Part shown: positions 25,626 to 48,830 of the stretch, one piece after another
Layout of the letters: each line of letters begins with the position of its first letter
How positions within the stretch are numbered: the stretch's first letter is position 1
Source of the DNA: an uncultured Candidatus Saccharibacteria bacterium
Lineage (GTDB): Bacteria > Patescibacteriota > Minisyncoccia > UBA6257 > 2-01-FULL-56-20
Length of the DNA: 64,000 bases
Reading direction: 5' to 3'
NCBI GenBank assembly: GCA_964484655.1
Contig: CAZAFA010000002.1
Coordinates: 123,860 to 187,859 of the forward strand
The notes under the pieces: model-generated
The model's input: the letters and a program-made list of their open reading frames with translations, nothing else
Database searches by the model: none
What the model was told of the DNA's origin: nothing
Program-made: the position numbers and the translations under genes

Positions 25626-25760
25626 ATGTCAGTGACCTACCAGCCCAAGAAGCGCAAGCGCGCCCGCACCCACGGGTTCCTTACGCGCAGCAGCACGCCG
25701 GGGGGTCGCCGCGTGCTCCAGCGCCGCCGGCGCAAGGGACGCGCCAAGCTCTCCGTCTAG
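25626..25760 (+). CDS. rpmH: 50S ribosomal protein L34
   Basis: [21 protein letters not shown]...; 44 aa. Confidence 0.9.
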
Positions 25761-25778
25761 GAGGGCTTTTTCGCCGTC

Positions 25779-28359: not shown

Positions 28360-28380
28360 GGGTGAAGTATAAGCTATTGC

Positions 28381-28818
28381 CTAGAAGTCCTGGCTTTCTG
28401 CCAGTCTCTTGGCTATGTCCTCCGGCACGCCGACCTCGACGAGCAACTCGTATTCCCAGGCTCCGCCGGTATTGATGAGAAGCACCCAGCGACCCTTGTC
28501 GTCCTTGCGCATCAGGGCCTGGCCTCCGCCTACGCCATCGGACCAGTCTTGAAGCGCGTAGTTCCCGGCGATACGCGTTTTGCCATATTCGAATATGTTC
28601 GTATCGACATCATCCATCTGTATGCGGAGGTCGTCGATGACCCTGCCCGTCGGACTGAAGTCGGTCGCGGGAGGCTGGTTCAACGGAATCTCCGGCAACG
28701 CTCCCGCGTCGGGAGCGTCGACGATCGCAGGCTCCTTCTGCGAGAGGCGCACGTAGGCAGCGAGAGCGATGCCGATGAAGAGCAAGGCGAGGGCCGCGAT
28801 GAGGATGATTCTCTTCAT
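28381..28818 (-). CDS. small secreted/membrane-anchored hypothetical protein
   Basis: N-terminal hydrophobic signal (MKRIILIAALALLFIGIALAAYV). Confidence 0.45.
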   Translation of the reverse strand: MKRIILIAALALLFIGIALAAYVRLSQKEPAIVDAPDAGALPEIPLNQPPATDFSPTGRVIDDLRIQMDDVDTNIFEYGKTRIAGNYALQDWSDGVGGGQALMRKDDKGRWVLLINTGGAWEYELLVEVGVPEDIAKRLAESQDF

Positions 28819-28825
28819 GTGGATA

Positions 28826-29659: not shown

Positions 29660-29661
29660 GA

Positions 29662-30351
29662 TCAGAACGTCGCCGCGGGAAGCACGCGCACGGATCCGCG
29701 CACGGATTCTTCCTTGTTCTGGGGATGCGTGATTGAGAGGCTTAGGAGGACGGCCTCAGGCGGACCTTCTACGGTGAGGACGAGCTGCTGGGGATTCTCG
29801 TTAGCGGAGGGGGGCTGGTTGTCCACGGACCAGCGGTAGATGAGGTCCGTGGCCCTGATGACATTGAATGCGTACGGCACCGCGACGAAGGTGTTCTCGC
29901 CCTCGCTCAGCCGCGGGCTGCTGATGGGGCGTATGACCGCCTTCGGTTTGGTCAGAGGCACGGATATGGACTTGAGCGTGTCCGTGAAAGGCGCGCCGAT
30001 GATCTCAACGCGGGCATCGAGGCTGTCTTGATGGAAGCGCTGGATCGGAACAGTGATCGCCTGCAGGCCGAAGCCGGTCTCGTAGAGCTCGTCGTTCACG
30101 TACCAGCGCACCTCGTATCGGGAAAGGTCAGCCGGCTGCCCGTTCACCAGGGCTTCTGCCAGGATGATGACCGTTCCTCCGCCAGCGGCGGCCACCCTGC
30201 CCTGATAGCTGGCCGGCGCGAAGCCGTTGCTGCGCCAGGACATCATGATCTCGCTGCTCGCGGACTGCCGGGCGACCGGGGTCTGGGCAAGCGCGGTCCG
30301 GATGCCCGCCAAGGACGCGACAAGCGCCAATAACGCGAGCAGCCTGTGCAT
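29662..30351 (-). CDS. secreted hypothetical protein
   Basis: Signal peptide MHRLLALLALVASLAGIRTALAQ. Confidence 0.45.
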   Translation of the reverse strand: MHRLLALLALVASLAGIRTALAQTPVARQSASSEIMMSWRSNGFAPASYQGRVAAAGGGTVIILAEALVNGQPADLSRYEVRWYVNDELYETGFGLQAITVPIQRFHQDSLDARVEIIGAPFTDTLKSISVPLTKPKAVIRPISSPRLSEGENTFVAVPYAFNVIRATDLIYRWSVDNQPPSANENPQQLVLTVEGPPEAVLLSLSITHPQNKEESVRGSVRVLPAATF

Positions 30352-30368
30352 GGGCGGATTATACCCGA

Positions 30369-31160
30369 TTACGAGGAGTTAGGCGTATTATGGGCCCTGC
30401 GTTCCGCCTCGCGCGTCGCCTGTTCGCCGGAGACGTCGATGTTGGCCAGGAGCTCAGTGAAGCCAGGATTGATCTCCCGCTCGACGTCGGCATATATGTC
30501 TGGGCCTGAGTCCCCGTCGGGGCGGTTACGGAGCTTGCCAGGGATGCGCTGGCTCTGCGTCGCGATCCGCTGACGATGCCGTTCAGGGAGGCCGCGGAGC
30601 TTCCCCGGAAGCTTCCGGTTGATACGGTTCCATTCGTGGTCGAACTGCTTGAGGCGTTCCTCTGACGCCGCCCCGAAGATCTTGTTCTTCGAGAGGCGGC
30701 TTCCCGGCTTGCCTCCTCCTGCAAGGGTCCCCTTCTGGGTCATCCTTCCGCGAGCTCCAGTCGGGACCTTGCCCTTCGGAGCCGGCACCTTCTCGGCAAC
30801 CCGCCGGAGCGTCTCGTTCCTGTCGATGGCGATAACTATGAGGATACCGAGCGTATAGAGCGGGAGGAGATCGACGATAGGAATCAGCTCAGCAAGCCAT
30901 GTAAGTACGTTGGCTGCGATCTGCCGGAACTGCGAAGCTCCGACGTAATAGAGATATCCGATGATGGCGATCTCGCAGATCCAGGCGATCGCATCGGTGA
31001 TCGGGATGCCGAGTTCCGCGTAGTTTATCGCGTCCAGGACTATCGTGAATATGAGCAGCGCGACTGCCCCGATCGTGCCGATCTTATGCTGCTTCGCCGC
31101 CGCGTGCTCACGATCGGCTTCGGATGGTATGCCCAGGGCCTTTTCCTGGTATGGGTCCAT
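30369..31160 (-). CDS. hypothetical integral membrane protein with basic C-terminal tail
   Basis: About 3 TM helices, then an R/K-rich region; T4SS-locus context. Confidence 0.45.
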   Translation of the reverse strand: MDPYQEKALGIPSEADREHAAAKQHKIGTIGAVALLIFTIVLDAINYAELGIPITDAIAWICEIAIIGYLYYVGASQFRQIAANVLTWLAELIPIVDLLPLYTLGILIVIAIDRNETLRRVAEKVPAPKGKVPTGARGRMTQKGTLAGGGKPGSRLSKNKIFGAASEERLKQFDHEWNRINRKLPGKLRGLPERHRQRIATQSQRIPGKLRNRPDGDSGPDIYADVEREINPGFTELLANIDVSGEQATREAERRAHNTPNSS

Positions 31161-31163
31161 CTT

Positions 31164-32885
31164 CTATATGAGCCCGGATTCCTCCAGGAGCTGCTGCGGG
31201 TTGGTGGTGATGAGCTTGTCCTCGTAGAACGAGGGGATGATCTGGATCGCGATATGCCGCTGTCCGGCGAAGAAGAGGCCGGTGCCGACCTCGGCGGTCA
31301 GCAGCAGGTTCTTCTCCGAGTCGGTCAGGTTGAAGGCCTTGCCGACGATGTCGATCGTCGCCGGAGCCTGCTTGAGGAGCAGCTGCGAGGACGAGTTCGT
31401 GATGATCGGGCGTCCGAACGGCGAGCGCAGGAAGTCTTCGACGTCCTGCGTGATTGTCGAGACGCCGAGATAGTACTTGCGCGCGCGCTTCACGAGCCCG
31501 AAGAGGAAGTTCGCCGAGTCCTCGTTCTTCATCATGATCCATGCCTCGTCGATGATGAGGATGCGCTTCTGGAACTGGGCTCGGATGAGGTTCCAGATGA
31601 AGTTCAGGATGACGTACATGGCGATCGGGCGGAGCTGCTCTTCGAGGTCGCGGATGCAGAAGACGATGAGGCGGTTGCTCAGGTCGATGTTGGTCGCCTT
31701 GTTCATGAAGCCGGCGAAGCTGCCCTCCGTGTACTTGTAGAGCCGCTCGGCGAGGGCGCGGCCGCCGTCGATGCTCCGCAGGACCGTCTCGAGGTCCTTA
31801 AGGACCGGCGGCTGGGCGTTGGCGAAGTCCTCGCCTGCGACGATCTCGCGGCTGGCGTAGGTCTCGGTGATGGCGCGGTCGATGAGCGCGTCCTCCTCGT
31901 TGGTGATGTTGCCGAGCATGAGGCGGACCAGGCCCGCGACGGAGACGATATGGCTGCGCAGCACGTCGGACGCCGCCTCGTCCTTCGGGATGATCGGGAT
32001 GTCGAACGGGTTGATCGTGTGCTCGCTCGTGAGCGAGATATTGAAGAAGCTGCCGCCGAACGCCTCCGTCAGGCGCTGGTACTCGTTCTCCGGATCGATG
32101 ACGATGACGTGCGTGCCCATCATCAGGGAGCGGATGATCTCGAGCTTGGTCGCGTAGCTCTTGCCGGAGCCGGACTTCGCGAAGACGACCTGGTTCGCGT
32201 TCTCGAGGCTGAAGCGGTCGAAGATGACGAGGCTGTTGTTGTGGCGGTTCACGCCGTACAGGATCCCCTCCTCGCTCATGAGGTCTTCCGAGACGAAGGG
32301 GTAGAAGCTGGAGAGCGGGCCCGAGTTCATCGGCGAGGTAACGTTGATCTTGTCCTGCGCGAGCGGGACCGTGCTCAGGAGTCCCTGCAGCTGCTGGAAG
32401 AGCGCCGGCTTCACGTAGACGAGCTTGGCCTCGAGGATCGAGACGACCTTGTTCTCGAGCTTGGCGAGCAGCTGCTCGGACTCGGCGTAGATCGTGATGT
32501 AGACGCCGACCGTGAAGAGGCGCTCCTCTGCCTGCTGGAGCGTGTCGCGGAGCGATTCCACGTTGTCGAGCGCGGTCTCGAGCATCGGGTCGCGGACCAG
32601 GCCCTTGTCCTGGTTGGTCGCGAGCTGGGCCTCGACCTGCGCCGCCTTCTTCCGGAGGTTCTTGAGCGCGAGGCCCGTATCGAACGGATTGACGAATATG
32701 GCGATGTCGAGCAGCTCGGCGAGGTTCACGATCGGCTCGAACCATCCCGTGACGAGGTAGTTCGGGTAGCCGAAGAAGAACAGGGTCTTGGCGTACTTCG
32801 TCCCGACCTTGAGGAACGAGGAATGCACCTCGACGCCTGCGGGCGAGATGATCGGCTTGGCAGCGTTGAAGGCGGAATCAGGCAT
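31164..32885 (-). CDS. type IV secretion system ATPase, VirB4/TrbE/CagE family
   Basis: Walker A FAKSGSGKSYATK, Walker B-like ILIIDEAW, VirB4 C-terminal ATPase domain pattern; 573 aa. Confidence 0.85.
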   Translation of the reverse strand: MPDSAFNAAKPIISPAGVEVHSSFLKVGTKYAKTLFFFGYPNYLVTGWFEPIVNLAELLDIAIFVNPFDTGLALKNLRKKAAQVEAQLATNQDKGLVRDPMLETALDNVESLRDTLQQAEERLFTVGVYITIYAESEQLLAKLENKVVSILEAKLVYVKPALFQQLQGLLSTVPLAQDKINVTSPMNSGPLSSFYPFVSEDLMSEEGILYGVNRHNNSLVIFDRFSLENANQVVFAKSGSGKSYATKLEIIRSLMMGTHVIVIDPENEYQRLTEAFGGSFFNISLTSEHTINPFDIPIIPKDEAASDVLRSHIVSVAGLVRLMLGNITNEEDALIDRAITETYASREIVAGEDFANAQPPVLKDLETVLRSIDGGRALAERLYKYTEGSFAGFMNKATNIDLSNRLIVFCIRDLEEQLRPIAMYVILNFIWNLIRAQFQKRILIIDEAWIMMKNEDSANFLFGLVKRARKYYLGVSTITQDVEDFLRSPFGRPIITNSSSQLLLKQAPATIDIVGKAFNLTDSEKNLLLTAEVGTGLFFAGQRHIAIQIIPSFYEDKLITTNPQQLLEESGLI

Positions 32886-33549
32886 CGGTCTTTTCGGGGG
32901 CGGCTACGGGGAGGTTGTCCCGCTCGACCGAGTCGGGATTGTAGAAGTTGTAGTAGAGCTCGATGAGCTCCTGGTCGCTCAGGACCGTCGTCTCGAGGCC
33001 GATCTGGTGGATTCCCTCCACCACTGCGTCAACGCGCTGCTGGAGCTGGCTCGCGTTCTCCTTGAACTGCTGCTCGGCGTTCGCCTTCCCCTGCTCGGGG
33101 TCCTTCTTGCGTCCGAAGAACGGCAGCGAGCTCGTGAGGGAGGTCGCCGAAGGCAGCGTCGTCGGATAGAACGGGACCACGACCAGGAAGATCTTGCGCA
33201 TGATGGCGAACTGCGCGACGAAGTCCCTGACGAACTTCTGGTACTCCGTGATCTGGTTGCGGAGGAGGCCGCTCGGCTCGTTGTTGCGACGGGATTCGAG
33301 CATGGCAAGGTAGCGCTCGATGTTGACCTTCCGGGAGTGCACGACGATCTGGAGCTGATAGTCGAGGCTGTTGAGGAATCCCTGGAAGGACTGGATCATG
33401 ACCCCCTGCTCCTCCTCGCTCTTGAGCGCGAAGTTCGTGCCGCCGACCATGACCACGCGGAGCAGGCCGCCGGCCTTGAGGATGACGATGCCGTCGCGGA
33501 TGTCCGCGATGTCGACCAGGTCCTGGGAATTCGCCGCGTTAGCCGCCAT
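32878..33549 (-). CDS. hypothetical protein (T4SS-locus)
   Basis: Coupled (8-nt overlap) to the VirB4 start; no recognisable motif. Confidence 0.4.
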   Translation of the reverse strand: MAANAANSQDLVDIADIRDGIVILKAGGLLRVVMVGGTNFALKSEEEQGVMIQSFQGFLNSLDYQLQIVVHSRKVNIERYLAMLESRRNNEPSGLLRNQITEYQKFVRDFVAQFAIMRKIFLVVVPFYPTTLPSATSLTSSLPFFGRKKDPEQGKANAEQQFKENASQLQQRVDAVVEGIHQIGLETTVLSDQELIELYYNFYNPDSVERDNLPVAAPEKTDA

Positions 33550-33583
33550 ATGCGCTCATTATTCGCGATAGAGTGCGGCCGCG

Positions 33584-34090
33584 CTAGGCGCTGAAGTCCA
33601 CGCGCTTGGCGGCGCGGAGCTCGCCGGTGACCTGGCGGAACACCTCGAAGCGGCTGGAAGGCGCTTCCGTGGCGAGCTGCTTCGCCTCGACCTTGCTGCC
33701 GGTCTCCACGTACTGCCAGGCCTTCTTCAGGCTCGTGCCCGAGATGATGCTCTCCAGGTTGAGCCCGCTTCCCGTCGTGCTCATGGTCTCAGGCGTCTTC
33801 GGCAGGTTCGGGCGCTCTGGCTGCCAGAGATAGAGCTGCGGGTTCCAGTAGAAGAAGAAGCCCAGGACGGCGATCTTCGAGAGCGGCTGTCCGTTGACCT
33901 TGAGGAAGGCCATGCTGCCTCCCGCTGCGCCAACGAGGATCGCGAATACGATGAAGAAGAAGCTCTGGAATACGAAATACAGGGCGAAGATGACGCCTGC
34001 CGTGATACAGAGATAGATGAACTGCCGGATCGTGAACGGTCCGGCGATCTTGTCCTCCGTGTCGATGAACTGGGGTACCTGGTACTGCAT
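33584..34090 (-). CDS. small two-TM membrane protein, possible VirB3/PrgI-like
   Basis: Two adjacent hydrophobic helices (FIYLCITAGVIFALYFVF / FFFIVFAILVGAAGGSMAF). Sits just upstream of the VirB4 module, as VirB3-like genes do. Confidence 0.45.
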   Translation of the reverse strand: MQYQVPQFIDTEDKIAGPFTIRQFIYLCITAGVIFALYFVFQSFFFIVFAILVGAAGGSMAFLKVNGQPLSKIAVLGFFFYWNPQLYLWQPERPNLPKTPETMSTTGSGLNLESIISGTSLKKAWQYVETGSKVEAKQLATEAPSSRFEVFRQVTGELRAAKRVDFSA

Positions 34091-34111
34091 GCGCCTTCTG
34101 GCGCAAGTCTA

Positions 34112-35104
34112 TCACGCCGCAGGCGGCGGCGAAGCGGGAGGAACGTCCTGGATCGGAGCGGGCGCCGGCATCGGCGGAGCGCTCGCAGGCTCGCTGTAGT
34201 TCACGGTCGGGAGCGGCTTGCGGCCGAAGCGGCGCGCGTGCCACGGAGCGATACGGTGCAGGAACGTGCCGAAGATTCCGCTCGCAGGGGGATCGTCGTT
34301 CGGGGGCGTCGCCTGCTGCGTGGTGACGACCTCGATGCTGGGTTGGACGGCGGGCGTGTCGAAGACGGGTGCCGGGGCAGCGGAAAGCGGGACGGGCGCC
34401 GGAATCTCCGCGGGGAGCGGCTGCGGCGGCACGTAGTCGACCGCGCTGATCTCCGGAAGCGGCGTGGCGCGCTCGACGAACACCGAGCGGAACTCCGCGT
34501 CCTTGCGCGGCGCGGCAGGGATGCCGAGGTCGATATGTGCTGCCCGCTGCGGGCCAGGGGTCGCCACAGTGCTGCGGGAGATGTCGCCGGTGTCCTTGAT
34601 GTCGAAGCGGGCGGTCGGCAGAGCGGTTTCCGAGGCTATCGTATCGCGATAGAGCGGGACGGGTGCCGGGATCCCGGAGGGCATCGGGAAGCCCTGCGGG
34701 GGCTTGATGTCCCCGACCGGAAGGGATGCGGGAACGACAGGCGATACCGGGACCGGCAGCGGGAGCTCGGTGGCGCCGCTCGGCTCGGTCGAGAGTTCGC
34801 CGACGCCGATGCCGAAGGCGACGAAGTCGCGCGCGAGCGGCATGAAGATGCGCGCCTTCACGTCCTCGTACAGCGCCGAGGCCTTCTCGCTGGGGAGGCC
34901 CAGCTCGTCCTCGATCACGTCGCGAAGGTCCGAGAAGTCGAGGTCCTTGATCTCGACGTCGAAGAGAATGACGGGGAGGTCCGTCTCGGATTCCGGAAGC
35001 CCGTACTTCTGCTCCAGGTCGGCGATGATCTGGTCCATCTCGTCGCTCCAGAACCAGTCGCGGATGCGACGGGGTACGGATTGGAATTTCTCCTCGATAG
35101 TCAT
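34112..35104 (-). CDS. proline-rich hypothetical protein
   Basis: Acidic N-terminal domain, then P/A/V-rich repeats (PLPVPVSPVVPASLPV, PAPVPL...). Confidence 0.45.
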   Translation of the reverse strand: MTIEEKFQSVPRRIRDWFWSDEMDQIIADLEQKYGLPESETDLPVILFDVEIKDLDFSDLRDVIEDELGLPSEKASALYEDVKARIFMPLARDFVAFGIGVGELSTEPSGATELPLPVPVSPVVPASLPVGDIKPPQGFPMPSGIPAPVPLYRDTIASETALPTARFDIKDTGDISRSTVATPGPQRAAHIDLGIPAAPRKDAEFRSVFVERATPLPEISAVDYVPPQPLPAEIPAPVPLSAAPAPVFDTPAVQPSIEVVTTQQATPPNDDPPASGIFGTFLHRIAPWHARRFGRKPLPTVNYSEPASAPPMPAPAPIQDVPPASPPPAA

Positions 35105-35113
35105 AGGAATCTT

Positions 35114-37465
35114 TTATTTTCCCTTCTCTTTACCCTTCGCTTTTTCCGCCCGGCTCTCACGGCGTGCTTTGCTAAGCTGTTCCATCTTGGCTGTATCAAT
35201 ACGACCAGTGAAATTCACATTATTTTTAAGTGTCTTATACATTGACGTGATGCGAGTCTTAGCATCCTTTATTGAGATACGGTTTGTTTTCTGCTCTGAA
35301 GTGAGATTGACATTGGAATCTTCGTTGTAGAAGAAATCACCAAAAAGGCCAATTTCTTTCTTCTTTTCTTCGGAAAGGGCTTCGAACTTCTGTATTTTCT
35401 GTCGAGCTCTTTCGATTACTTCCGTAATTCGCTCAATTTGTTCGATATTCATATCACCAATTTGCTTGAGCTGAGAATTATTGAGAGCTGTTGTACGTAG
35501 AACGACGCCCTGTCGGGTTTCCAATCCTTCATCCTTTTGATAGTCGAATAGCGAATCATCGAGTGCAAGAGTTGATATATCGTCCCCTTTCACCGAAGGA
35601 ATTTGTGCTGCGACTGCTTCCTGAGTCGTCATTGTACGACTCTTGTCTTTCGTCTTGCCGCGCGGGGCGAGGGCTGCAAGTTGCGGAGCCGAGGGAAGGA
35701 TTTCCTTCAGTACCCCGGAATCCTGGGCCCGCTTAAGTTGACGCTCGAGATCTTTCTTATAAGCTTCTTCGACTTTCTTATATTGCTCACTAGATTGCAG
35801 TCTTTTCTTCTCTTCCTTCACCGCCTTCTTGAGATCCTTACCTTTTAGGCCATCAGCCTTCGCTTTCTTCTCGTAGTCAGCTAGTGCTTTCTCGACTTCC
35901 GGGCTCGCAGATGTCGCGAGGCCGCCGAGCGCCTTCTTCTCCTTGAGGAGCTTGAAGATGGCCGCCTCGCGGTCGGGGTTCGCGGCGAGCTGGCCGGAAG
36001 CCAGCCGGCGCCGCTCCGCGAGCAACGCGCTGGTAGTGAGGTTCTTGAGGCTGTCCTGCTCGTCCTGCACGCGCTGCTCGACCGACTTCTTGTTCGCGAC
36101 GCCGGCGTCCGCCATGTAGCGTCCTACCGTACCCGCGCCTGCCATGCGCGCGATCCTGCTGTTAGAGGAGAGCGTGGAGAGCCTGCTGCCCATGCGCTGC
36201 AAGCGCGAGTTCCCATCCTTGTCCTTGCCCGACGTGCGCACGCGATCGAGCGTCCGCATGCCTGCCGCCGACGCTCTTCGCTTGACAGAGTTACCTACGG
36301 AAGCGAACGCAGCCTTGCCGGAGTCCATGAACTTGATGCCGAGCTTCGAGGAGAAGTACAGGCCGCCGTAGAGCGTCCCGGAGATGAGGATGAAATTGAG
36401 GCTGCTCGTGATGATCGGCTTCGCCGCCGCGCCGAAGGTCTTGAAGAGGAACCCGCTGATGCCGCCGCCAGCGGTATCGGCGCTGCCGAGACCCGTCAGC
36501 TGGGCGTCGTCGAGGACGTGGGCGCCATTGATGAAGGCCGCGGTCTTCATGCTCAGGTAGAGGAAGAACATCGCCATGGGGGCGAAGAAGGTCCACTTCA
36601 CGAACTTGTCCGACCAGTAGCTCACGAGGCCCCTGCCGAAGGGGAATATCCAGGCGAGCCATACCGCGGGCATGATGATGAGCAGGAGCGAGAGCGTCAC
36701 GTAGCGCGCGGCGAATGCGGCGAGCATGATGCCGAAGAAGATCACGAGCAGGATGCTCATGATGACGGTCATGTAGATGCCGGCGATCGCCGCGAACATG
36801 CCTGCGGTGTCGGCAGCGAACTTGCTCGTCGCGTCCGAGAAGATAGTCTCCTCCTTCACCTCGGTGCTGAATCCGGCGTTCAGGAAGGCCTTCTGGGGAT
36901 TGAAGGCTCCCGCGAGGTTGTCCGCGAATTCGAGGATGCCCACCCCGATATCCGCCGTGGGATTGGGGACGGAATTGTTGATGAAGAATTCCGTAAGCCT
37001 GTCCGAGAAGTTGATGGCGGTGCCTGCCAGGATGAGGCTGAAGTTCACGCCAATGGCGGCGATCACGATCTTCCAGAGCAGCTGCTTCGCGCCGTAGGTG
37101 TCGTACCGGATGATCGTCGCGACCGCCATGATGATCACCGCGGCGACGAAGGCAATGTTCGCGAAGGCGAGGACAATCGAGAATCCGAACTGGACCGAGG
37201 TTGAATTGACGAGGTCGAAGTTGAGCTTGAGGAGGAACTGGAAGAAGAAGACCTCGATGATCGTGATGATGTTCAGGAGGATGCCTATGAGGTAGGCGAT
37301 GTAGTAGGCAACCTTCTGGACGAGCGAGAAGGCGACATCGGATATGCCCGTGAGTTCGCCGACCCAGCCCAGGATGCCCGCGTGCGCTTCTTGAGGAACC
37401 AGAAAGGCAGCGCCTGCGAGGACCGCAGCCAGGACGAGAGAGACGGGTTTGATGCGCTTATTCAT
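35114..37465 (-). CDS. VirB6/TrbL-like polytopic membrane protein with long K/E-rich coiled-coil C-terminal domain
   Basis: About 8-9 TM helices in the N-terminal 420 aa. The C-terminal 360 aa are Lys/Glu-rich heptad-like; this AT-rich DNA is at 35150-35900. Confidence 0.65.
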   Translation of the reverse strand: MNKRIKPVSLVLAAVLAGAAFLVPQEAHAGILGWVGELTGISDVAFSLVQKVAYYIAYLIGILLNIITIIEVFFFQFLLKLNFDLVNSTSVQFGFSIVLAFANIAFVAAVIIMAVATIIRYDTYGAKQLLWKIVIAAIGVNFSLILAGTAINFSDRLTEFFINNSVPNPTADIGVGILEFADNLAGAFNPQKAFLNAGFSTEVKEETIFSDATSKFAADTAGMFAAIAGIYMTVIMSILLVIFFGIMLAAFAARYVTLSLLLIIMPAVWLAWIFPFGRGLVSYWSDKFVKWTFFAPMAMFFLYLSMKTAAFINGAHVLDDAQLTGLGSADTAGGGISGFLFKTFGAAAKPIITSSLNFILISGTLYGGLYFSSKLGIKFMDSGKAAFASVGNSVKRRASAAGMRTLDRVRTSGKDKDGNSRLQRMGSRLSTLSSNSRIARMAGAGTVGRYMADAGVANKKSVEQRVQDEQDSLKNLTTSALLAERRRLASGQLAANPDREAAIFKLLKEKKALGGLATSASPEVEKALADYEKKAKADGLKGKDLKKAVKEEKKRLQSSEQYKKVEEAYKKDLERQLKRAQDSGVLKEILPSAPQLAALAPRGKTKDKSRTMTTQEAVAAQIPSVKGDDISTLALDDSLFDYQKDEGLETRQGVVLRTTALNNSQLKQIGDMNIEQIERITEVIERARQKIQKFEALSEEKKKEIGLFGDFFYNEDSNVNLTSEQKTNRISIKDAKTRITSMYKTLKNNVNFTGRIDTAKMEQLSKARRESRAEKAKGKEKGK

Positions 37466-39785
37466 CGAGCAGAGTGAGCGGCAGGTTGCACGCCCTGTCC
37501 TTGAGGTTGTCCCGGGCGTCCTGGGCGAGCGACTGCATCTGGCCGTTCCGCGTGGTGGCGCGCGTCGCGAGAGTGGCGACCTGCGAATTGATGATGTCGA
37601 GGGAGCCGATGAGATCGGAGATCGCCATAGCGCTCGTCGCCGTATTGATGGCTTCCGTCGTGGAAGCGAGCTGCGCGATCACGGTCCCGATCGAGGTGCC
37701 GTCGGTGCTGACGCGCGGCGCGATCCGGTCTATGGCTCCGAGTCGCTGGCTCGCCGTCTCGGCGAGCGCAGGGCAGGTAGCGCCGACGGATATCAGGAGC
37801 GGCTGGGTCGAAGAGGCGTGCCCCGTCCAGGCCGCGATGTCGTTGCGGACGCTGCTCGCGCGACCCTGGTGGGCAGTAGCGAGCTGCAGGGCCTGCGCGC
37901 GGACCGAAGCGAGGCTCGACTGGTCCTCGCCGCCCCCGCTGGTGCTCGTGCCGTTGCCGTTCCCCGATCCGCCTCCGCTTCCGGACTCGCCGTTGAACAG
38001 GCCGAGCAACCCTCCTACCGCGAGATTGGTCAGTCGCGAGATCGCAGCATCCACTACCGCGGCGACGAGGCCGGCGAGATCGTTCGCGTTGACCACGTTG
38101 TCGAGCGTGCCGCCCAGCGACTTGGATACCTGGTCGGCGACAGCGCCGCCCGGAGTCGTCTGTTGCCAGCCGTCCGAGGCACACATCTCTACCTCGCAGG
38201 TCTGAAGATAGGGGTCACCGCCGTCGTAACAACGGATAAGCCTACGGAAGTTAGGGTCTCGCCTGAGCTCGTCAGCTTCGCGTTCATCAGCAGTTATAAC
38301 CTCCGTTTTAACGCACCGCCTCATACCCGTGTAGCCGCGGTTCGACTCCGCATTCGTTGAAGCGGATTCCTTCGCGCCGGCCGCTTCGTGCATGGCGGTC
38401 TCGCCGGCTACGACGATTGCGCCCCAGGCGTTGTTCTGCGGTTCGAGGATGAGAGTCGCGAATCCGATCCAGCCTCCTGACCTGAAGTCCTCGTAGAAAT
38501 CCTTCACGCTCGCGACGATCTGGTCCAGGGTGCAGGTGAATTGCTGATAGGGGTCGCGGGAGCCGCTGACGCTATTGGGGGCCGTAGCTCTGAGGAAGTC
38601 GGTCGTGAATGCGCGCAGGTTCTGGCAGAGCTTCGGCTCGATCTTGTTGATGAGCGTGTTGACCGCGCCTACCGCGCTGTCCTTAAGGAAGCCCTTCCAG
38701 TTGGTGATGAACTGCGGCTTACCGCCTCCTTGTACCCATTTGATCGTCTGTTGGATGAGACGGCCTACGATCTGGTTCTTGAGGATCTGCAGCGCGATGC
38801 TCTTAAGTTCCCTCACAATGAGCTGACCCCATGTGCCGTAGTCCGCGATGCCGTTGATGATCGTCTTGACGATGTGCCCGAAGTCGATGACCGGCCAGCC
38901 CGCGTTGGCGCGCGGGATACCAAGCAGCGAAGCCAGGAGGAGCGGCTTGTGCGCTCCTGAAGAGAGCGACTCGTACTGCAGCTGTTCGGCTTCCGCTTGG
39001 AGCTTGTTGCCCTCGTACGCGAGGAGCTCCGGATACTTCGTCGTGAAGACCACCGCCTTGAGCGGGTCGGTCGTGTAGTCGAGGTCGGTGAGCTTCCGGT
39101 TGAGCTCGAAGTAGGTCAGCGCCTGCTCGTGGAGCTTCTGCGCGGGAGCGGGCACGACCGCGTTGTAGAGCTTCTCCTGCGCCTGCGCGAGGAGGAAGTT
39201 GCTCGCCTCGATCGCCGCGGGCGTCGGCTGGCTCCCGCTCCGCGCCATCACTGCGCTCATGCCGCCGGACGTGGTGCTCGCCATGGAGAAGGTCTCCTCG
39301 AGCGTCGAGAGGTAAGCGTCGAGCTGCTCCTGGGTGTAGTTCTTGGCGACCTTCAGTCTGCTGCGGTCGATGGCGTACGTGGTCGGCGTGAGGGCAGCGT
39401 CGGTGACGTACTGGTCCACGACGTCCTGGAGGTTGTTCGGGAGGAGCACGCCGGTACCTTGGGTCAGGTCGGGGCCTTCAGGGTTGGCTTTGACGAAGTT
39501 GTAGGCGAGGCCCTTCGCGAGCTCGTCCGTGTAGTTCCCCTCGACATCGGTCCGCGGCGTGAACTCGGCTGCGAGGTCGTAGCCCTCGATGCGCGTCGTC
39601 GCGATATCCTCTACGAAAGCGCGGTCGCCGATCTTCGGGACCTGCTTCTGCGCCTGCTGCGTAGCGGCCGCAGGTCCCTCTCCTTTCTGCCGCGCGAGGC
39701 TCGTGAAGGCCAGGGACGCGGATCCGGCCAGGAGCGCGAGCACCAGGAACGTCGTGATGAGTTTACGGAGCTCGTGAGCCTGCAT
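37458..39785 (-). CDS. large secreted/surface protein of the T4SS-like locus
   Basis: Start placed at MQAHELRKLITTFLVLALLAGSASLA (signal/anchor). A G/S/N-rich linker (GESGSGGGSGNGNGTSTSGGGED) separates two domains; several conserved Cys residues. Confidence 0.55.
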   Translation of the reverse strand: MQAHELRKLITTFLVLALLAGSASLAFTSLARQKGEGPAAATQQAQKQVPKIGDRAFVEDIATTRIEGYDLAAEFTPRTDVEGNYTDELAKGLAYNFVKANPEGPDLTQGTGVLLPNNLQDVVDQYVTDAALTPTTYAIDRSRLKVAKNYTQEQLDAYLSTLEETFSMASTTSGGMSAVMARSGSQPTPAAIEASNFLLAQAQEKLYNAVVPAPAQKLHEQALTYFELNRKLTDLDYTTDPLKAVVFTTKYPELLAYEGNKLQAEAEQLQYESLSSGAHKPLLLASLLGIPRANAGWPVIDFGHIVKTIINGIADYGTWGQLIVRELKSIALQILKNQIVGRLIQQTIKWVQGGGKPQFITNWKGFLKDSAVGAVNTLINKIEPKLCQNLRAFTTDFLRATAPNSVSGSRDPYQQFTCTLDQIVASVKDFYEDFRSGGWIGFATLILEPQNNAWGAIVVAGETAMHEAAGAKESASTNAESNRGYTGMRRCVKTEVITADEREADELRRDPNFRRLIRCYDGGDPYLQTCEVEMCASDGWQQTTPGGAVADQVSKSLGGTLDNVVNANDLAGLVAAVVDAAISRLTNLAVGGLLGLFNGESGSGGGSGNGNGTSTSGGGEDQSSLASVRAQALQLATAHQGRASSVRNDIAAWTGHASSTQPLLISVGATCPALAETASQRLGAIDRIAPRVSTDGTSIGTVIAQLASTTEAINTATSAMAISDLIGSLDIINSQVATLATRATTRNGQMQSLAQDARDNLKDRACNLPLTLLDE

Positions 39786-39839
39786 AGTCTCTGATGAATT
39801 GTACGTTAAGCAGGCGCTACCGCACAACGAAAATGGGGA

Positions 39840-43054: not shown

Positions 43055-43299
43055 CCTGACAAACATATTTGTCAGGATTTTTCGTAGATGTTTAGCGATA
43101 AACATCTAAAGTGCGAAAAATGTTTAGCGACAAACATTTTTTGCTCGATTTCAGACAATTTTGTTTAGCGACAAACATTTTTCCGCTGACAAACATGTTT
43201 GTCAGACAAAAATTTGTTTAGCGACAAACATTTTCTTGAAAAATACGCATAGGAATGTTTAGCGACAAACATTTTTCCTCTGACAAACATGTTTGTCAG
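43055..43299. repeat. AT-rich array of eight palindromic sites: five B-type and three A-type
   Basis: B-type: ATGTTTAGCGA[C/T]AAACAT, five direct copies at about 43087, 43119, 43161, 43213 and 43254. A-type: CTGACAAACAT[G/A]TTTGTCAG, two perfect 20-bp palindromes at about 43186 and 43280, plus the variant CCTGACAAACATATTTGTCAGG at 43055. Confidence 0.85.
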
Positions 43300-43426
43300 A
43301 TGTCGCAAAATATCAATCTGTATTCTCTTTATTCCGGAATGGCGCATCCGGATTGCCTCGGTTCGAAAGTGAAGGCAATAATAGGTGCGTACTAAAACCA
43401 AATAGGTACAACTCAATAACAATCTA

Positions 43427-44806
43427 ATGCTTAACATCAAAGACATCGGCAAGGCTCTCAAGCAGATCGCTGAGGAGAAGGGCCTTCCCCAGGAGAAGGT
43501 GCTCGAGGCTATCGAGTACGCCATCGCGACCGCTTATAAGCGCGAGTACGCGACCAAGAACGAGATCGTGAAGTCGACGCTCAACCTCGACACCGGCGCC
43601 CTCGAGTTCTGGAAGGAGAAGACCGTCGTGGACGAGACCCTCGTCCGTTTCGTCACGCCGGAGGAGGAGGCGGCCGAGGAGGAGGCTCGGCAGCAGATGC
43701 TCCAGCAGGGGCTCCGCCCGCCGCATCCCGACCAGGAGGTCGGCGAGGACGGCGAGCCCAAGCTCCCGCGCTTCAACCCGGAGCGGCATCTTCTGCTCGA
43801 CGAGGCGCGCGCCATCAAGAAGGATGCGCAGATCGGCGAGGTGCTCACCTTCCCGCTCGAGGTTCACGAGGACTTCGGCCGCATCGCGGCGCAGGCTGCC
43901 AAACAGGTGGTCATGCAGCGCCTCCGCGAGTCGGAGCGCTCGCTCATCCTCGACGAGTGGCGCGGCAAGGAGGGTCAGATCGTCAGCGGCATCGTCCAGC
44001 GCTACGAGCGCGGGCACGTGTACGTCGACTTCGGCCGCGCGACCGGCGTGATGTTCTACAACGAGTCGATCCCGAGCGAGCATTACCGCTCGGGGGACCG
44101 CCTGCGCTTCTACGTGCTCGCGGTGCAGGAGGACACGCGCATGCCGGGCATCATCCTGTCGCGCTCGCATCCGATGTTCGTGCAGAAGCTGTTCGACCTC
44201 GAGGTTCCTGAGCTTTCAGAGGGAGCGGTCGAGATCAAGGGCATCGCGCGCGAGGCGGGGAGCCGCACGAAGGTTGCGGTGCAGTCCCATGCGCCGGGCG
44301 TCGATCCGATCGGCTCGTTCGTCGGGCAGCGCGGCACGCGCGTCATGGCGGTGACCAACGAGCTCGGCCAGGAGAAGATCGACATCATCGAGTGGTCCGA
44401 CGAGCCGGAGGTGTTCATAGCGCACGCGCTCAGCCCTGCGCGCGTGAACGCGGTCGAGACGTACGACCGCCGCGAGGCGCGCGTCTTCGTCCCGGACGAC
44501 CAGCTGTCGCTCGCGATCGGCAAGGGAGGCCAGAACGTCCGCCTGGCCGCGAAGCTCACCGGCTGGAAGATCGACGTCCGCTCCAGCGCCGATCCTGAAG
44601 CGACCCAGGAAGGCGGCGTCGCCACGAGCGAGGGCGAGACGTTCGCCGAGGAGACGGCGCGCGAGATCGAGGACAGCCTCGAGCAGGTCGCCGAGGAGGT
44701 GGCCGTCGCGCCGGATGCGGGGGATACCCCCGAGGAGATGGCCGAGGATCGCGCCGGCGAGCCGGTCGACCTGACCGAGGAGGATTCAGTCACTACGTCA
44801 TCCTGA
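43427..44806 (+). CDS. nusA: transcription termination/antitermination factor NusA
   Basis: N-terminal domain, S1 and two KH domains, acidic C-terminal tail; 459 aa. Confidence 0.9.
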   Translation: MLNIKDIGKALKQIAEEKGLPQEKVLEAIEYAIATAYKREYATKNEIVKSTLNLDTGALEFWKEKTVVDETLVRFVTPEEEAAEEEARQQMLQQGLRPPHPDQEVGEDGEPKLPRFNPERHLLLDEARAIKKDAQIGEVLTFPLEVHEDFGRIAAQAAKQVVMQRLRESERSLILDEWRGKEGQIVSGIVQRYERGHVYVDFGRATGVMFYNESIPSEHYRSGDRLRFYVLAVQEDTRMPGIILSRSHPMFVQKLFDLEVPELSEGAVEIKGIAREAGSRTKVAVQSHAPGVDPIGSFVGQRGTRVMAVTNELGQEKIDIIEWSDEPEVFIAHALSPARVNAVETYDRREARVFVPDDQLSLAIGKGGQNVRLAAKLTGWKIDVRSSADPEATQEGGVATSEGETFAEETAREIEDSLEQVAEEVAVAPDAGDTPEEMAEDRAGEPVDLTEEDSVTTSS

Positions 44807-45995: not shown

Positions 45996-46412
45996 TCAGC
46001 GCGGCAGGACGTACAGGTAGTCGTAGACGTGCGGCCCGAAGACGAGGAAAGCTACGACGAGCGCCGTGATCGCGGAGAGCAGCACGGCGCCCGCGGCCAC
46101 GTCCTTCGTGTCGCGCGCGAACGGGTGATGGTCCGGCGAGGTGAGGTTGATGTCGATCTCGATGGCGGTGTTGATGGCCTCCGCGGTCAGAACGAGTCCG
46201 GAGGCGAGGACGAGCGCGAGCCACTCCGTGCGCGAGATGTCGAAGGCGATGCCGCCGATGACGGCGATGATCAGGATCGCGATCTGGACCCAGGCGTTGT
46301 GCGTGGTCGCGAAGAAGATCCGGAGACCGCGGCCTGCGTGCACGAAGCTCTTCGCTCTCCTGACGATCGAGAAGCGCTCGCGCTCGGGAAGGGTGTGCTC
46401 GGCGATCCGCAT
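45996..46412 (-). CDS. diacylglycerol/undecaprenol kinase (DgkA family)
   Basis: 138 aa, 3 TM, EAINTAIE (DgkA signature). Confidence 0.7.
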   Translation of the reverse strand: MRIAEHTLPERERFSIVRRAKSFVHAGRGLRIFFATTHNAWVQIAILIIAVIGGIAFDISRTEWLALVLASGLVLTAEAINTAIEIDINLTSPDHHPFARDTKDVAAGAVLLSAITALVVAFLVFGPHVYDYLYVLPR

Positions 46413-47623
46413 CAGGCCGTGAATGTCGCGAACCGGTGCTTGCCGACCTTCACCGTGATTGAGCCGGAAACCGGCGTTCCGGGATCGCCGATCTTCGCTC
46501 CGCTGCCCAGGTCGGTGACCGCTCCTTGGTCGAAGAGGCGCCTGCCGTCGGTCTTGGAATCGACGAGCGCGTGCATGACGAGCGCGTCGAGGAGCGCCGT
46601 CCCGGCGGGAACCGGGTATGACGGGATATCCGTCGGGATGCCACGCTCGCTGAAGGCTGCGATCCAGGATTCCTTCGCATGCTCCGCTGCCGCATCGTCG
46701 TGATACATGCGGACGATCTCCGTAGCGAGCTCGAGCTTGAGGTCCTTCGGGTTCGCGCCCTCGTCGAGTCGGCGCTTGATCGCCTCGACCTCGGCGACCG
46801 GCAGGCGCGTGCAGTCCAGGAAGACCTGCACGATGCCCTCGTCGGGAAGCGCCATGACCTTGCCGAACATGTCGGCAGGGGATTCGCCGAGTCCGACGCC
46901 CGTTCCCTTGCTCTTGCTCATGAGCGCCTCGCCGGTCGCGGGATTCTCCAGCAGCGTGGTCGCGAGGACGAACTTCTCGCGGTCCTGGTATCGCTTCACG
47001 AGCGTCCGGCCGGCCAGCATGTTGAAGGTCTGGTCGGTTCCGCCGATCTCCAGGTCCACCTCGAGCGCCACAGAGTCGTATCCTTGCATGAGCGGGTACA
47101 TGAATTCATGGACGTACAGCGGCTTCCGCTCTTTCAGCCGGCGCTCGAAGAGGTCGCGCTCGATCATGTGCTGGACCGTGAAGTTCGAGGCCAGGTCGAG
47201 CAGTTCCTCGAAGCCGAGCTTCGAGAGCCACTCGCTGTTGAAGCGGAACTCGATGGGGTTCTCCTGGTCGTCGAAGGGGAGTACCTTGCCGATCTGCTGC
47301 TTGAACGTCGCGAGGTTCTCCTGGACCTGCTCCTTGGTCAGGCGCGTGCGGACCGCGCCCTTGTCCGGGTCGCCGATCATGGCCGTGAAGTCGCCGACGA
47401 GCACGATGATGCGGTGACCGAGCTTGTGGAGCCGCTCGAGGAGGAGATAGTTCGTGGAGTGCCCCAGGTGGACGTAGGTGGAGGTCGGGTCGATGCCGAC
47501 GTAGGCCGTCAGGCGGCGTCCCGTGAGGAGCTCGGTCCTGAGCGCGTCGGCGCCCGGATAGACTGCTGCCACGGAGCGGGTGAGCAGCTCGTCGATCAGG
47601 GCGGGGTCGGTGACGGTCTTCAT
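46412..47623 (-). CDS. tyrS: tyrosyl-tRNA synthetase
   Basis: YVGIDPTSTYVHLGH (HIGH-type), KMSKS as EALMSKSKG; start at MKTVTD. Confidence 0.9.
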   Translation of the reverse strand: MKTVTDPALIDELLTRSVAAVYPGADALRTELLTGRRLTAYVGIDPTSTYVHLGHSTNYLLLERLHKLGHRIIVLVGDFTAMIGDPDKGAVRTRLTKEQVQENLATFKQQIGKVLPFDDQENPIEFRFNSEWLSKLGFEELLDLASNFTVQHMIERDLFERRLKERKPLYVHEFMYPLMQGYDSVALEVDLEIGGTDQTFNMLAGRTLVKRYQDREKFVLATTLLENPATGEALMSKSKGTGVGLGESPADMFGKVMALPDEGIVQVFLDCTRLPVAEVEAIKRRLDEGANPKDLKLELATEIVRMYHDDAAAEHAKESWIAAFSERGIPTDIPSYPVPAGTALLDALVMHALVDSKTDGRRLFDQGAVTDLGSGAKIGDPGTPVSGSITVKVGKHRFATFTA

Positions 47624-47670
47624 GAAGCAGAGTGTACCAGGCGTTGGCGGCTGCCTCACGCCGATTCCCG

Positions 47671-47733
47671 GGAATGTTTAGCGCCAAACATTCCTGACAA
47701 ACATGTTTGTCGCCCGGATTTGCTCGATTTCTG
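47671..47733. promoter_or_regulatory. second copy of the B+A palindrome module plus the shared 12-mer TTGCTCGATTTC
   Basis: GGAATGTTTAGCGCCAAACATTCC immediately followed by CTGACAAACATGTTTGTCG and TTTGCTCGATTTC; same arrangement as at 43119-43152 and 43254-43299. Confidence 0.8.
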
Positions 47734-47805
47734 AGCGGGTAAGGGGAGTCGAACCCCTGCCTTCTCCTTGGAAGGGAGACGCACTACCGCTATGCAATAC
47801 CCGCG
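47734..47805 (-). tRNA. tRNA-Gly (anticodon TCC)
   Basis: Folded by hand: acceptor GCGGGTA/TACCCGC, anticodon stem-loop TCTCC-CTTCCAA-GGAGA, T-arm GGGGT-TCGACTC-CCCCT. Confidence 0.8.
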
Positions 47806-47897: not shown

Positions 47898-47971
47898 GGC
47901 ACCCATAGCTCAACGGTTAGAGCAGTCGTCTTATACACGACCGGTTCCTGGTTCGAGTCCAGGTGGGTGCA
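47898..47971 (+). tRNA. tRNA with anticodon TAT (Ile-UAU type)
   Basis: Acceptor GCACCCA/TGGGTGC, D-arm GCTC-AACGGTTA-GAGC, anticodon arm GTCGT-CTTATAC-ACGAC, T-arm CCTGG-TTCGAGT-CCAGG, discriminator A; CCA not encoded. Confidence 0.7.
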
Positions 47972-47974
47972 CAG

Positions 47975-48751
47975 CTAGGCGGCCTCGGAGGCCTCCCAGA
48001 TGAACATGAACCAGCTGCGGAGCATGCCCGCGAGCATCTCGTTCTCGACGAGTATCCCGAAGAGCTGGCGGTCCTTCAGCGCGTAGAAGGCGACCTGGTC
48101 GTCCCAGATCATGAGGTTGGACCAGAGGCGGATCGTCCCCTCAGGCTTCACCCGGATCTCGCGCAGGTACGTCGCGTCGTCGTTGAACTCGGCGCCCGGC
48201 AGCCGCTTCGGGCCGGGACGCAGCGCGAGGAGCCGCGTACCGAACTTCCTGCGGTACGCGTGATACTCGCGGAGGAAGGGCGTGCCGATCGACTTGTGTA
48301 TGTCGTACTCGGACCCTGCCACGAGCACTTCCTTAGAGCCGGCGTTCACGCTTCGCCAGAGCATCTTCTTGATGTTCTCCGCGCCGTCGAAGTACGAGAC
48401 GCGCGAGAAAGGGGAGGGTCCCGCGTCCAGCGCGGCGAACGCAGGGAGCAGCTCCTCGAGATCCTTCTCGAGCGAGCGCGTGGCTTCCACGCGCTCGCGT
48501 ATCAGAGCCTTGAGCTCGCCGGGCGGGTTCGCCTTGATGCGTCGCCCGTAGGCGGCGCCGACCTGATGGACGAAGCCCTTCTCCTCGAGCTTGCGGACGA
48601 CGTCGTACGCGTTCGTGCGGGTGAGGCCGAGCCTCTTCGCGAGCTGGCTCACGGCCACGGGCCCGGCCTTAAGGCAGAAGAGGTAGGTCTCCGATTCTCG
48701 TCCGGAGAGTCCCATGCGATCGAGGAAGGCAGCGAGGCCGCGGGCTGACAT
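47975..48751 (-). CDS. TrmB-family-like transcriptional regulator (N-terminal wHTH + C-terminal domain)
   Basis: Start at MSARGL; HTH region VAVSQLAKRLGLTRTNAYDVVRKLEEKGFV. Confidence 0.55.
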   Translation of the reverse strand: MSARGLAAFLDRMGLSGRESETYLFCLKAGPVAVSQLAKRLGLTRTNAYDVVRKLEEKGFVHQVGAAYGRRIKANPPGELKALIRERVEATRSLEKDLEELLPAFAALDAGPSPFSRVSYFDGAENIKKMLWRSVNAGSKEVLVAGSEYDIHKSIGTPFLREYHAYRRKFGTRLLALRPGPKRLPGAEFNDDATYLREIRVKPEGTIRLWSNLMIWDDQVAFYALKDRQLFGILVENEMLAGMLRSWFMFIWEASEAA

Positions 48752-48830
48752 GTTGTCGAAATTATATCGACACATATACGGATAGGAAGGAGTGCGGTTA
48801 CCTGTCCGCAGTCATGGAGGACAACCAAAT

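Follow-up and report, generated by a model that had tools for sequence, protein, structure and literature searches.

Two palindromes lie between tRNA-Gly and tyrS

The 64-kb stretch of DNA that we analysed, here called the window, carries two adjoining palindromes between the 3′ end of a tRNA-Gly(UCC) gene (gene anticodon tcc) and the promoter of tyrS, whose upstream side faces them (Table 1). A gene for a TrmB-HTH protein (PF01978, E = 3e-12) is close by, with the palindromes on its 3′ side and two tRNA genes between. The flanking genes tRNA-Gly, tyrS, TrmB-HTH and nusA were as given in a preliminary description of this DNA.

We call the palindromes B and A. From 47671 to 47731 the order is GGAATGTTTAGCGCCAAACATTCC (an extended palindrome around B), TGACAAACATGTTTGTCG, a 6-nt spacer (cccgga) and TTTGCTCGATTTC. 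The preliminary description had the sequence of this module right, but it had placed the parts directly one after another; A shares one C with the end of B, and the CCCGGA spacer precedes the final word. Both palindromes use the 8-bp arm TGTTT(A/G)(G/T)C twice: head to head around a central CG in B (here TGTTTAGC and GCCAAACA, with 15/16 positions symmetric) and tail to tail in A (GACAAACA and TGTTTGTC), in this copy with zero spacer. A also contains TTGACA/TTGATA-like hexamers.

Table 1. Positions of genes and sequence elements in the window
Feature	Position	Strand	Remark
dnaN	22900-24006		beside dnaA
dnaA	24135-25478	-	array starts 17.6 kb away, satellite 22 kb
rpmH-rnpA-yidC-jag	25627-27223		beside dnaA
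Array upstream of nusA	43056-43297		5 B and 3 A copies
A1, GACAAACATATTTGTC	43058-43073	.	distal array edge; one mismatch to A core
B1, TGTTTAGCGATAAACA	43089-43104	+	main array
B2, TGTTTAGCGACAAACA	43121-43136	+	followed by 13-mer
13-mer, array copy	43140-43152		identical to the copy at tRNA-Gly
B3, TGTTTAGCGACAAACA	43162-43177	+	repeat family D10
A2, GACAAACATGTTTGTC	43188-43203	.	A core
B4, TGTTTAGCGACAAACA	43215-43230	+	main array
B5, TGTTTAGCGACAAACA	43256-43271	+	main array
A3, GACAAACATGTTTGTC	43282-43297	.	A core
nusA	43427-44806	+	downstream of main array
tyrS	46412-47623	-	upstream side faces module
Putative extended -10 of tyrS, TGGTACACT	47631-47639	-	7 nt upstream of ATG
Extended palindrome around satellite B, GGAATGTTTAGCGCCAAACATTCC	47671-47694		
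Satellite B, TGTTTAGCGCCAAACA	47675-47690	.	candidate variant parS-like 16-mer, arms AGC and GGC
Satellite A, GACAAACATGTTTGTC	47696-47711	.	perfect 16-bp palindrome
13-mer, TTTGCTCGATTTC	47719-47731	+	abuts tRNA-Gly 3′ end
tRNA-Gly(UCC)	47733-47804	-	module between its 3′ end and tyrS promoter
TrmB-HTH protein gene	47975-48775	-	PF01978

The putative extended -10 element of tyrS is identical in the relatives L116 and L112, and L113 has TGGTAGAAT at the same place. Its closeness to the ATG implies that the tyrS mRNA is leaderless or has a very short leader. Since the distance from B to this element is 35 nt in the window, 27 nt in L116 and 24 nt in L112, B holds no fixed promoter position. A scan of the module region (47660-47735) for promoters and terminators returned weak CTGACA-type -35 matches only and no terminator; in contrast to an intrinsic terminator, the stems are rich in A and T and lack a following T run on the minus strand. 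An Rfam search of the window returned tRNAs only.

The palindromes recur in an array upstream of nusA

The preliminary description had reported the B-then-A module and its shared word as the second copy of an arrangement upstream of nusA. Both the window sequence and a motif census confirmed this. The first copy is an array of five B and three A palindromes, 4.4 kb from the module, which we therefore call the satellite. The B word TGTTTAGCG occurs six times in the window, at the start of each B copy in Table 1 and always on the plus strand, and the A core GACAAACATGTTTGTC occurs at 43188, 43282 and 47696, with the one-mismatch copy A1 in addition. No further copies of A or B were found in the 64 kb or in another ~15 kb from this organism (L125-L128). 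By calculation, the chance recurrence of a perfect 16-mer in 64 kb is ~3e-5.

The B copies of the array fit TGTTTAGCG[A/C][C/T]AAACA and are of the same type as the satellite B. All six B copies are asymmetric and share one polarity, although nusA is on the plus strand and tyrS on the minus strand. Spacings between B copies in the array are 32, 41, 53 and 41 bp, and on the plus strand these copies are followed by T runs. AT content in the window is highest at the array, with 33% GC over 300 bp against ~65% overall.

The exact word shared by the two loci proved to be 13 nt long rather than the 12 nt first described. The 12-mer TTGCTCGATTTC within it occurs exactly twice in the window (43141 and 47720); allowing one mismatch, we found 3 matches against 0.33 expected, a number reached in 0/100 shuffles. 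In L116, 9/12 positions of the word are conserved, and it is not present in the nusA arrays of L112 and L114. Its identity at both loci of this genome looks like the result of exchange between them.

The satellite is conserved in close relatives

Close relatives of the window were gathered through TyrS homologues. The satellite is kept at 76-79% TyrS identity and absent at 67-73%. In L116/L117 (TyrS 79%) the gap between tRNA-Gly and tyrS contains GATAAACATGTTTATC-aggaa-TGTTTAGCGCTAAACA, and in L112 (76%) it contains GATAAACATGTTGATC-gggga-TGTTTGCCGCACAACA; in L113 (73%) and L114 (67%) the module is absent and the tRNA lies 27 and 3 nt from tyrS, respectively. Arrays upstream of nusA are present in L112 and L114, and L112 carries an unusual TGTTGATC arm in both its loci. 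Three further loci found with TyrS (L118-L120) have unrelated gene contexts.

The 5-nt gap between A and B is constant in all three module-bearing genomes (window, L116 and L112), and both arms of A changed together, from GAC..GTC to GAT..ATC, in the GATAAACATGTTTATC of L116/L117. The spacing was kept and the arms changed symmetrically while the flanks diverged, a pattern that indicates purifying selection on the tyrS copy. Most plausibly, the module is a protein-binding DNA site under selection.

Arrays of the B motif precede yraN across Patescibacteria

B fits a motif family found throughout the phylum, TGTTT-NNC-GNN-AAACA, which forms arrays of 2-11 copies at ~40 Patescibacteria loci. In the sequence available, each genome has a single array locus; it immediately precedes yraN, and nusA usually comes next. 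We scanned one genome per species (185,579 species) with TGTTTAGCGNCAAACAT, a pattern narrower than the motif family, and recovered 110 stretches. Single matches were scattered over all phyla, as chance predicts. Clustered matches occurred exclusively in Patescibacteria (Paceibacterota, Liptonbacteria, Saccharibacteria and others), with one cluster locus seen per genome. The L005 contig has a lone extra site, which is probably a coding coincidence.

Nearly all loci from the scan share the gene order uvrD - M23 peptidase - array - nusA - ppa - clpP - tyrS, with a small gene between the array and nusA that encodes a YraN/UPF0102 nuclease (PF02021). yraN follows the array even where nusA is not a neighbour, as in L007 (ruvA, array, yraN-yebC-ruvC-pbp-dnaN) and in L019, where array and yraN lie near ftsK and a class I tRNA synthetase gene. 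Divergent genes upstream of the arrays often include comM and a gene for a DksA/TraR zinc-finger protein. YraN and ComM form a nuclease-helicase pair that resolves transformation D-loops (bioRxiv 10.1101/2024.02.06.579203). We rejected a sequence preference of YraN itself as the explanation for the motif, since YraN nicks DNA with relaxed specificity (bioRxiv 10.1101/2024.02.06.579203). The 64-kb window contains no yraN, comM or dksA-like gene; its family keeps the array directly upstream of nusA.

For a sample independent of the motif, we collected 80 metagenomic loci by NusA alignment, 54 of which had at least 1.2 kb upstream of nusA. Where yraN was present, 22/31 loci had one or more sites in the 900 bp upstream of it, while 0/23 loci without yraN had a site upstream of nusA. 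The array thus tracks yraN, not nusA. This result, together with the variable distance from B to the tyrS -10 element, speaks against the idea that the module is a promoter motif of translation and transcription genes, in whose promoter regions the preliminary description had placed both loci.

Among 183 sites, variation is confined to the two inner positions of each arm, with the outer TGTTT/AAACA and the central CG unchanged throughout. Arms in various lineages are AGC, GTC, TAC, TCC and ATC, and other full sites include TGTTTTACGGAAAACA, TGTTTTTCGTAAAACA and TGTTTATCGTTAAACA. Spacing between B copies is irregular across arrays (27-138 bp), with no helical phasing; unit lengths include a 36-bp period in L079 and 45-bp units in L005. 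Complementarity of the flanks beyond the 16-mer averages 1.68 bases, compared with 0.79 ± 0.10 in shuffles, and 53/99 sites have no flank extension. Our search of the literature on the motif, and on parS/ParB or oriC in Patescibacteria, found nothing specific.

A and B arms covary

In most lineages the distal edge of the array carries one or two A-type palindromes, with a 4-bp spacer (GAYAAACA-N4-TGTTTRTC). In the window's family the spacer is 0 and A copies are more numerous. The arms of A covary with those of the local B sites: 59% match, compared with 34 ± 5% after shuffling between loci, and 0/2000 shuffles reached the observed value. This covariation suggests that the same arm is read, or was copied, in both arrangements. 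We know of no counterpart of the A-type palindrome described in ParABS systems.

Canonical parS sites occupy the array position in three lineages

The chromosome-partition protein ParB loads on a 16-bp centromere site called parS. We found perfect copies of the canonical chromosomal parS, TGTTTCACGTGAAACA, at the position of the array, upstream of yraN(-nusA), in three lineages. L207 has 4 perfect copies, L174 has 3 together with variants (11 sites in all) and L168 has 2. L174 also carries an A-type palindrome, GTGAAACA-N3-TGTTTCAC.

B has the architecture of parS, being a 16-bp inverted repeat with contiguous 8-bp arms, a central CG and TGTT-type ends, and it lies in an origin-proximal region. 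It is identical to the canonical TGTTT-CAC-GTG-AAACA at 12/16 positions, including all outer bases and the central CG, and departs from it at positions 6, 7, 10 and 11; it therefore does not match the canonical consensus TGTTNCACGTGAAACA. A search of the 64-kb window, which contains dnaA, for canonical parS with as many as 3 mismatches found none. Since the match is only 12/16 and no site lies within 3 mismatches, we class B as a variant and not as a canonical parS. In a published description of diverged parS families, each site is a 16-bp palindrome whose 5′ end is rich in T and whose 6-bp core contains 2 C, 2 G, 1 A and 1 T, with CG at its centre (PMC5450999). The cores AGCGCT and GTCGAC fit this description exactly, each with 2 C, 2 G, 1 A and 1 T and a central CG.

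ParA and ParB are encoded in a cultivated Saccharibacterium, where they scored as essential or growth-defective in Tn-seq (supplement of PMC10633639). Scanned for the GERRxRA motif, the window, ~15 kb of flanking sequence and ~1 Mb from related loci yielded no ParB gene, and those ~15 kb also contain no ParA gene and no more motif copies. ParB binding is suggested by the sequence architecture of the sites and by orthologous replacement between canonical and variant arrays. Most likely, the B/A pair by tyrS consists of variant centromere sites and is neither a TrmB operator nor a mobile repeat. More specifically, the module probably combines a variant parS, on which ParB would load, with an everted-arm palindrome, and would be a satellite of the chromosomal centromere cluster.

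Several observations fit this interpretation less well. B departs from canonical parS at the four positions given above, the DNA scanned yielded no ParB gene, the A-type palindrome lacks a counterpart in described ParABS systems, and the tightness of the arrays suits plasmid centromeres better. The coupling to yraN, with the array extending up to the yraN start codon, also fits a role as promoter or operator, and the flank complementarity at some sites is unexplained by ParB binding.

The array probably lies at or near the replication origin

parS is usually near the origin and often adjoins oriC. The presence of dnaA, dnaN and rpmH-rnpA-yidC-jag marks the window as origin-proximal, and the array is near dnaA/dnaN in both loci where this was visible (17.6 kb from dnaA in the window and ~4.5 kb from dnaN in L007). 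We considered whether the palindromes are part of the origin itself, as iteron-like sites for an initiation factor in an AT-rich oriC detached from dnaA.

Several observations fit such a role. The array exceeds every other part of the window in AT content, dnaA is flanked by short, GC-rich intergenic regions that contain one near-box each, and gene orientation diverges from the array. DnaA boxes accompany the arrays of several other lineages: four to five lie beside or inside that of L010, L161 has three by its array (two perfect), L015, L030 and L104 each have a perfect box 2 nt from a palindrome and L207 has a near-box, TTTTCCACA, 2 nt after two parS sites. Skew inflections have been reported to "typically contain a small repeat array" (PMC7111523). 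In our data, the pooled GC3-skew shift peaks at the array (side effect 0.070 ± 0.023 over the first 18 array loci), right-side skew exceeds left-side skew in 15/17 array loci and clear sign flips occur in L019, L103 and L010.

Other results speak against such a role. No DnaA box lies within 400 bp of the window's array. L007 has strongly negative GC3 skew on both sides of its array and six loci with longer flanks show no flip, which weakens the case, built on pooled skew, that the array equals oriC. In L119, which has a canonical oriC between dnaA and dnaN, there is no array within 21 kb. There GC3 skew moves from ~-0.3 to +0.3 at the DnaA-box-rich dnaA-dnaN gap regardless of gene strand, indicating that the method works in this phylum. 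In the window, raw GC skew is positive throughout and GC3 analysis showed it to be driven by gene strand, with a replication term of ~0; skew therefore does not locate the origin of this genome. The satellite, between a tRNA gene and the tyrS promoter, has no obvious origin role. An identity of the palindromes as origin elements is unlikely in our judgement. Relatives differ in whether they show boxes and skew flips, and we conclude that the array, which lies at or near oriC, does not itself constitute oriC in every lineage. A function in oriC, or as a local operator, would be compatible with parS function.

Operator, RNA and repeat explanations

The preliminary description had proposed the TrmB-like regulator as the cognate binder of the module. 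More generally, the palindromes might be conventional operators for a transcription factor (TrmB-like or another HTH dimer) that controls yraN/nusA and, here, tyrS. The sites do lie between genes and close to promoters: the yraN ATG of relatives comes 8-50 nt after the last B, and from the coordinates the centres of B and A are at about -59 and -80 relative to the putative tyrS start. The hexamers in A, and the TrmB-HTH gene 250 bp from the module, would also suit an operator. This gene, however, does not adjoin the module in L112, nor does it adjoin tyrS in L113 or L114. An operator would also have to account for canonical parS arrays at the same position in three lineages, for 3-11 irregularly spaced sites at the single array locus seen per genome, for the sliding of B over 24-35 nt relative to the -10 element and for a B polarity that tracks the chromosome, not the gene. 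TrmB control in particular finds no support in these comparisons, and we hold the operator explanation to be quite improbable.

The palindromes could alternatively act as RNA or single-strand hairpins, serving as processing or stability signals or as terminators in the tRNA-Gly-tyrS and nusA leader transcripts. Transcription may extend through the spacer, given that tRNA-Gly is only 3-27 nt from tyrS in L114 and L113. At some sites the flanks, of differing sequence, are complementary; both hairpins of the window can be closed by CCGGG/CCCGG, and T runs follow B in the nusA array. On the minus strand, which is the sense strand of tyrS, neither hairpin is followed by a U tract, in keeping with the empty terminator scan, and Rfam yielded no match. 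More than half of the sites (the 53/99 noted above) have no flank extension. The outer 5+5 bases are invariant across the phylum without covariation, which points to base-specific recognition of duplex DNA. Function as RNA hairpins is in our judgement highly improbable.

We rejected the idea that the module is a small mobile or dispersed repeat (REP/BIME/MITE-like, the alternative raised in the preliminary description) or a TIGR-type guide-RNA array, which we regard as scarcely credible: the module is a mosaic of short palindromes that appears inserted relative to L113/L114, and the 36-bp period of L079 matches the TIGR unit length (PMC12045711), but there are just two loci in ~79 kb, no target-site duplication or other direct flanking repeat is common to the window, L116 and L112, arrays occupy orthologous positions throughout the phylum, a scan of viral contigs yielded only 4 single, chance-level matches (no enrichment), and in most arrays the spacing is irregular (32, 41, 53 and 41 bp in the window, not a strict 36 nt), with a single repeat type, conserved rather than variable "spacers" and no Nop-domain tas gene nearby. 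Neither dozens of randomly placed copies with flanking repeats nor a lack of any other copy, the two outcomes that the preliminary description had set against its own proposal, was found.

Discussion

A model that accommodates most of these observations is that B is a lineage-variant parS. The array upstream of nusA (43056-43297) would then be the main parS cluster of this Patescibacteria chromosome, and the module at 47675-47711 would be an extra site, gained in recent family ancestry between tRNA-Gly and the tyrS promoter. ParB dimers would nucleate on each B, with one helix-turn-helix per 8-bp arm, and would then spread as CTP-dependent clamps, such that the satellite could serve as an added loading point within the same partition complex. 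The irregular, unphased spacing of B copies suits independent loading sites. In the weakest step of the model, A may be bound by the same arm-reading domain, in a different geometry or as two half-sites.

The sites resemble known centromeres in several respects. The Spo0J parS of Bacillus subtilis, TGTTNCACGTGAAACA, is likewise a 16-bp palindrome with outer TGTTT/AAACA and a central CG, and is likewise origin-proximal and present in several copies. The arrays described here differ from chromosomal parS in having AGC, GTC or GGC arms instead of CAC, in their tight packing (3-11 sites in 200-800 bp), in being fixed to the 5′ side of yraN and in their everted-arm palindrome. Packing of this kind is commoner in plasmid centromeres than in chromosomal parS. 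The sopC centromere of the F plasmid is a tandem array of ~43-bp units, each with a 16-bp palindrome, comparable to the 36-bp and 45-bp units of L079 and L005. The KorB operator of RK2, TTTAGCSGCTAAA, shares the TTTAGC arm with B; unlike B, it has an odd central base. Both sopC and KorB belong to plasmid systems with adjacent parA/parB or korB, whereas the arrays here adjoin none of these genes. In Pseudomonas aeruginosa, ParB binds half-parS sites scattered genome-wide. These would be a precedent for ParB reading isolated 7-8-bp arms, as A would require; they do not form a conserved everted pair with a fixed spacer like A.

Such divergence has a parallel in the Bsr parS families of secondary replicons and plasmids in Burkholderiales, which have the same 16-bp form, T-rich 5′ end and 2C 2G 1A 1T core, and in which the core diverges while the architecture is kept (PMC5450999). 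Bsr sites are on secondary replicons beside a canonical parS on the main chromosome, while the variant here is on a dnaA-bearing chromosome with no canonical parS within 64 kb. Since canonical parS has been described as shared by all primary chromosomes (PMC5450999), variant sites in Patescibacteria would be an exception to that universality.

Extending these ideas, we tentatively propose that the primary chromosomes of Patescibacteria may have abandoned the "universal" parS core for lineage-specific 16-bp variants. These would be held in a compact array, like that of a plasmid centromere, fused to yraN, a transformation nuclease gene, on its 5′ side and often accompanied by DnaA boxes. The arm-everted second element in each array might then reflect a second mode of ParB binding or a partner protein that reads the same arm, and the whole could be a composite control region for origin, centromere and competence gene. 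We see this broader proposal as a possibility that is less probable than not.

Canonical parS is treated as a faithful marker of primary chromosomes (PMC5450999), and a phylum in which its core drifts, with canonical and variant arrays occupying one locus, would, if our interpretation is true, be a natural experiment in ParB-parS co-evolution. The arrays would also provide a simple sequence landmark for the centromere/origin region in the many fragmentary Patescibacteria genomes, where such palindromes should not be annotated as operators of regulators or as mobile repeats. The everted-arm palindrome and the unexplained linkage to yraN raise questions that can be tested in these newly genetically tractable organisms.

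DNA motifs beside the palindrome arrays

In four separate lineages, DnaA boxes and parS-type palindromes occurred at a fixed distance from one another: exactly 2 nt separated a DnaA box (TTATCCACA or TTTTCCACA) from the end of the palindrome. The paired motifs suggest a composite site. We also examined the surroundings of dnaA in the window. Both flanking intergenic regions were short and GC-rich, each contained only one near-consensus DnaA box, and the usual oriC signature was absent from both.

Immediately distal to the palindrome arrays, we detected up to 14 repeats of the hexamer CGGCAA/TTGCCG, frequently as ATCCGGCAAT. Quantitation across the array regions of 40 loci revealed a density of 3.99 per kb, compared to 1.34 per kb elsewhere. 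At two loci of relatives, L010 and L161, copies were interleaved with DnaA boxes.

Some of the B-type sites themselves (16-bp palindromes) extend beyond the 16-mer. Among 99 sites at 28 loci, about one quarter carried 3-10 additional complementary bases, and the mean complementary extension was 1.68 bases versus 0.79 ± 0.10 in shuffles. The sequences of these extended flanks differ from site to site (for example, ggggaTGTTT..AAACAtcccc). A protein that reads only the core would not account for the flank complementarity.

Coordinates of features in the window and in the loci of relatives (L-numbers)
Feature	Window	Relatives	Remarks
DnaA box + parS-type palindrome		L015 1884-1911, 2115-2142; L030 5821-5847; L104 6137-6163; L207 2524-2549, 2617-2642	
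CGGCAA/TTGCCG repeats (examples)		L005 6750-6958; L161 4450-4600; L010 1500-1700	
Intergenic regions flanking dnaA	24007-24134; 25479-25626		128 bp; 148 bp
Type IV secretion-like apparatus genes	27220-39827		- strand; 12-kb run
tRNA-Ile, anticodon UAU (TAT)	47899-47972	L112 3361-3434; L113 5372-5447; L114 9498-9571	
Mis-called tyrS N-terminal stretch		L116 557-616; L112 3617-3676	
Promoter-hairpin-T run before nusA	43326-43390 (counterpart)	L005, L016, L044, L062, L079, L104, L108, L111, L135	10-40 nt before nusA

Neighboring genes and the nusA leader

The origin-proximal region of the window also contains, between jag and rsmA/uvrD, the type IV secretion-like run. Matches in this run were to a T4SS pilin, PrgI, and TraC-like proteins; it also encodes large proteins that lacked a Pfam match.

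Adjoining tRNA-Gly, a tRNA-Ile(UAU) was conserved in this family, in the window and in three close relatives. The UAU anticodon is rare on tRNA-Ile among bacteria, which usually decode AUA using a CAU tRNA with lysidine modification. In L116 and L112, gene callers placed the tyrS start at an ATG within the B palindrome (ATGTTTAGC...), resulting in ~20 spurious N-terminal residues (422-423 aa versus 403 aa); the conserved start is 60 nt downstream.

In nine relatives, a consensus TTGACA..TATAAT promoter upstream of nusA was followed immediately by a GC-rich hairpin and then a T run (for example, gtccgcccgcaggcggacTTTTTT). At the equivalent place in the window are two hairpins, TCCGGAATGGCGCATCCGGA and TTGCCT..AGGCAA, with no T run after them. 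The element in the relatives looks like a leader terminator, which suggests that NusA autoregulates through attenuation.
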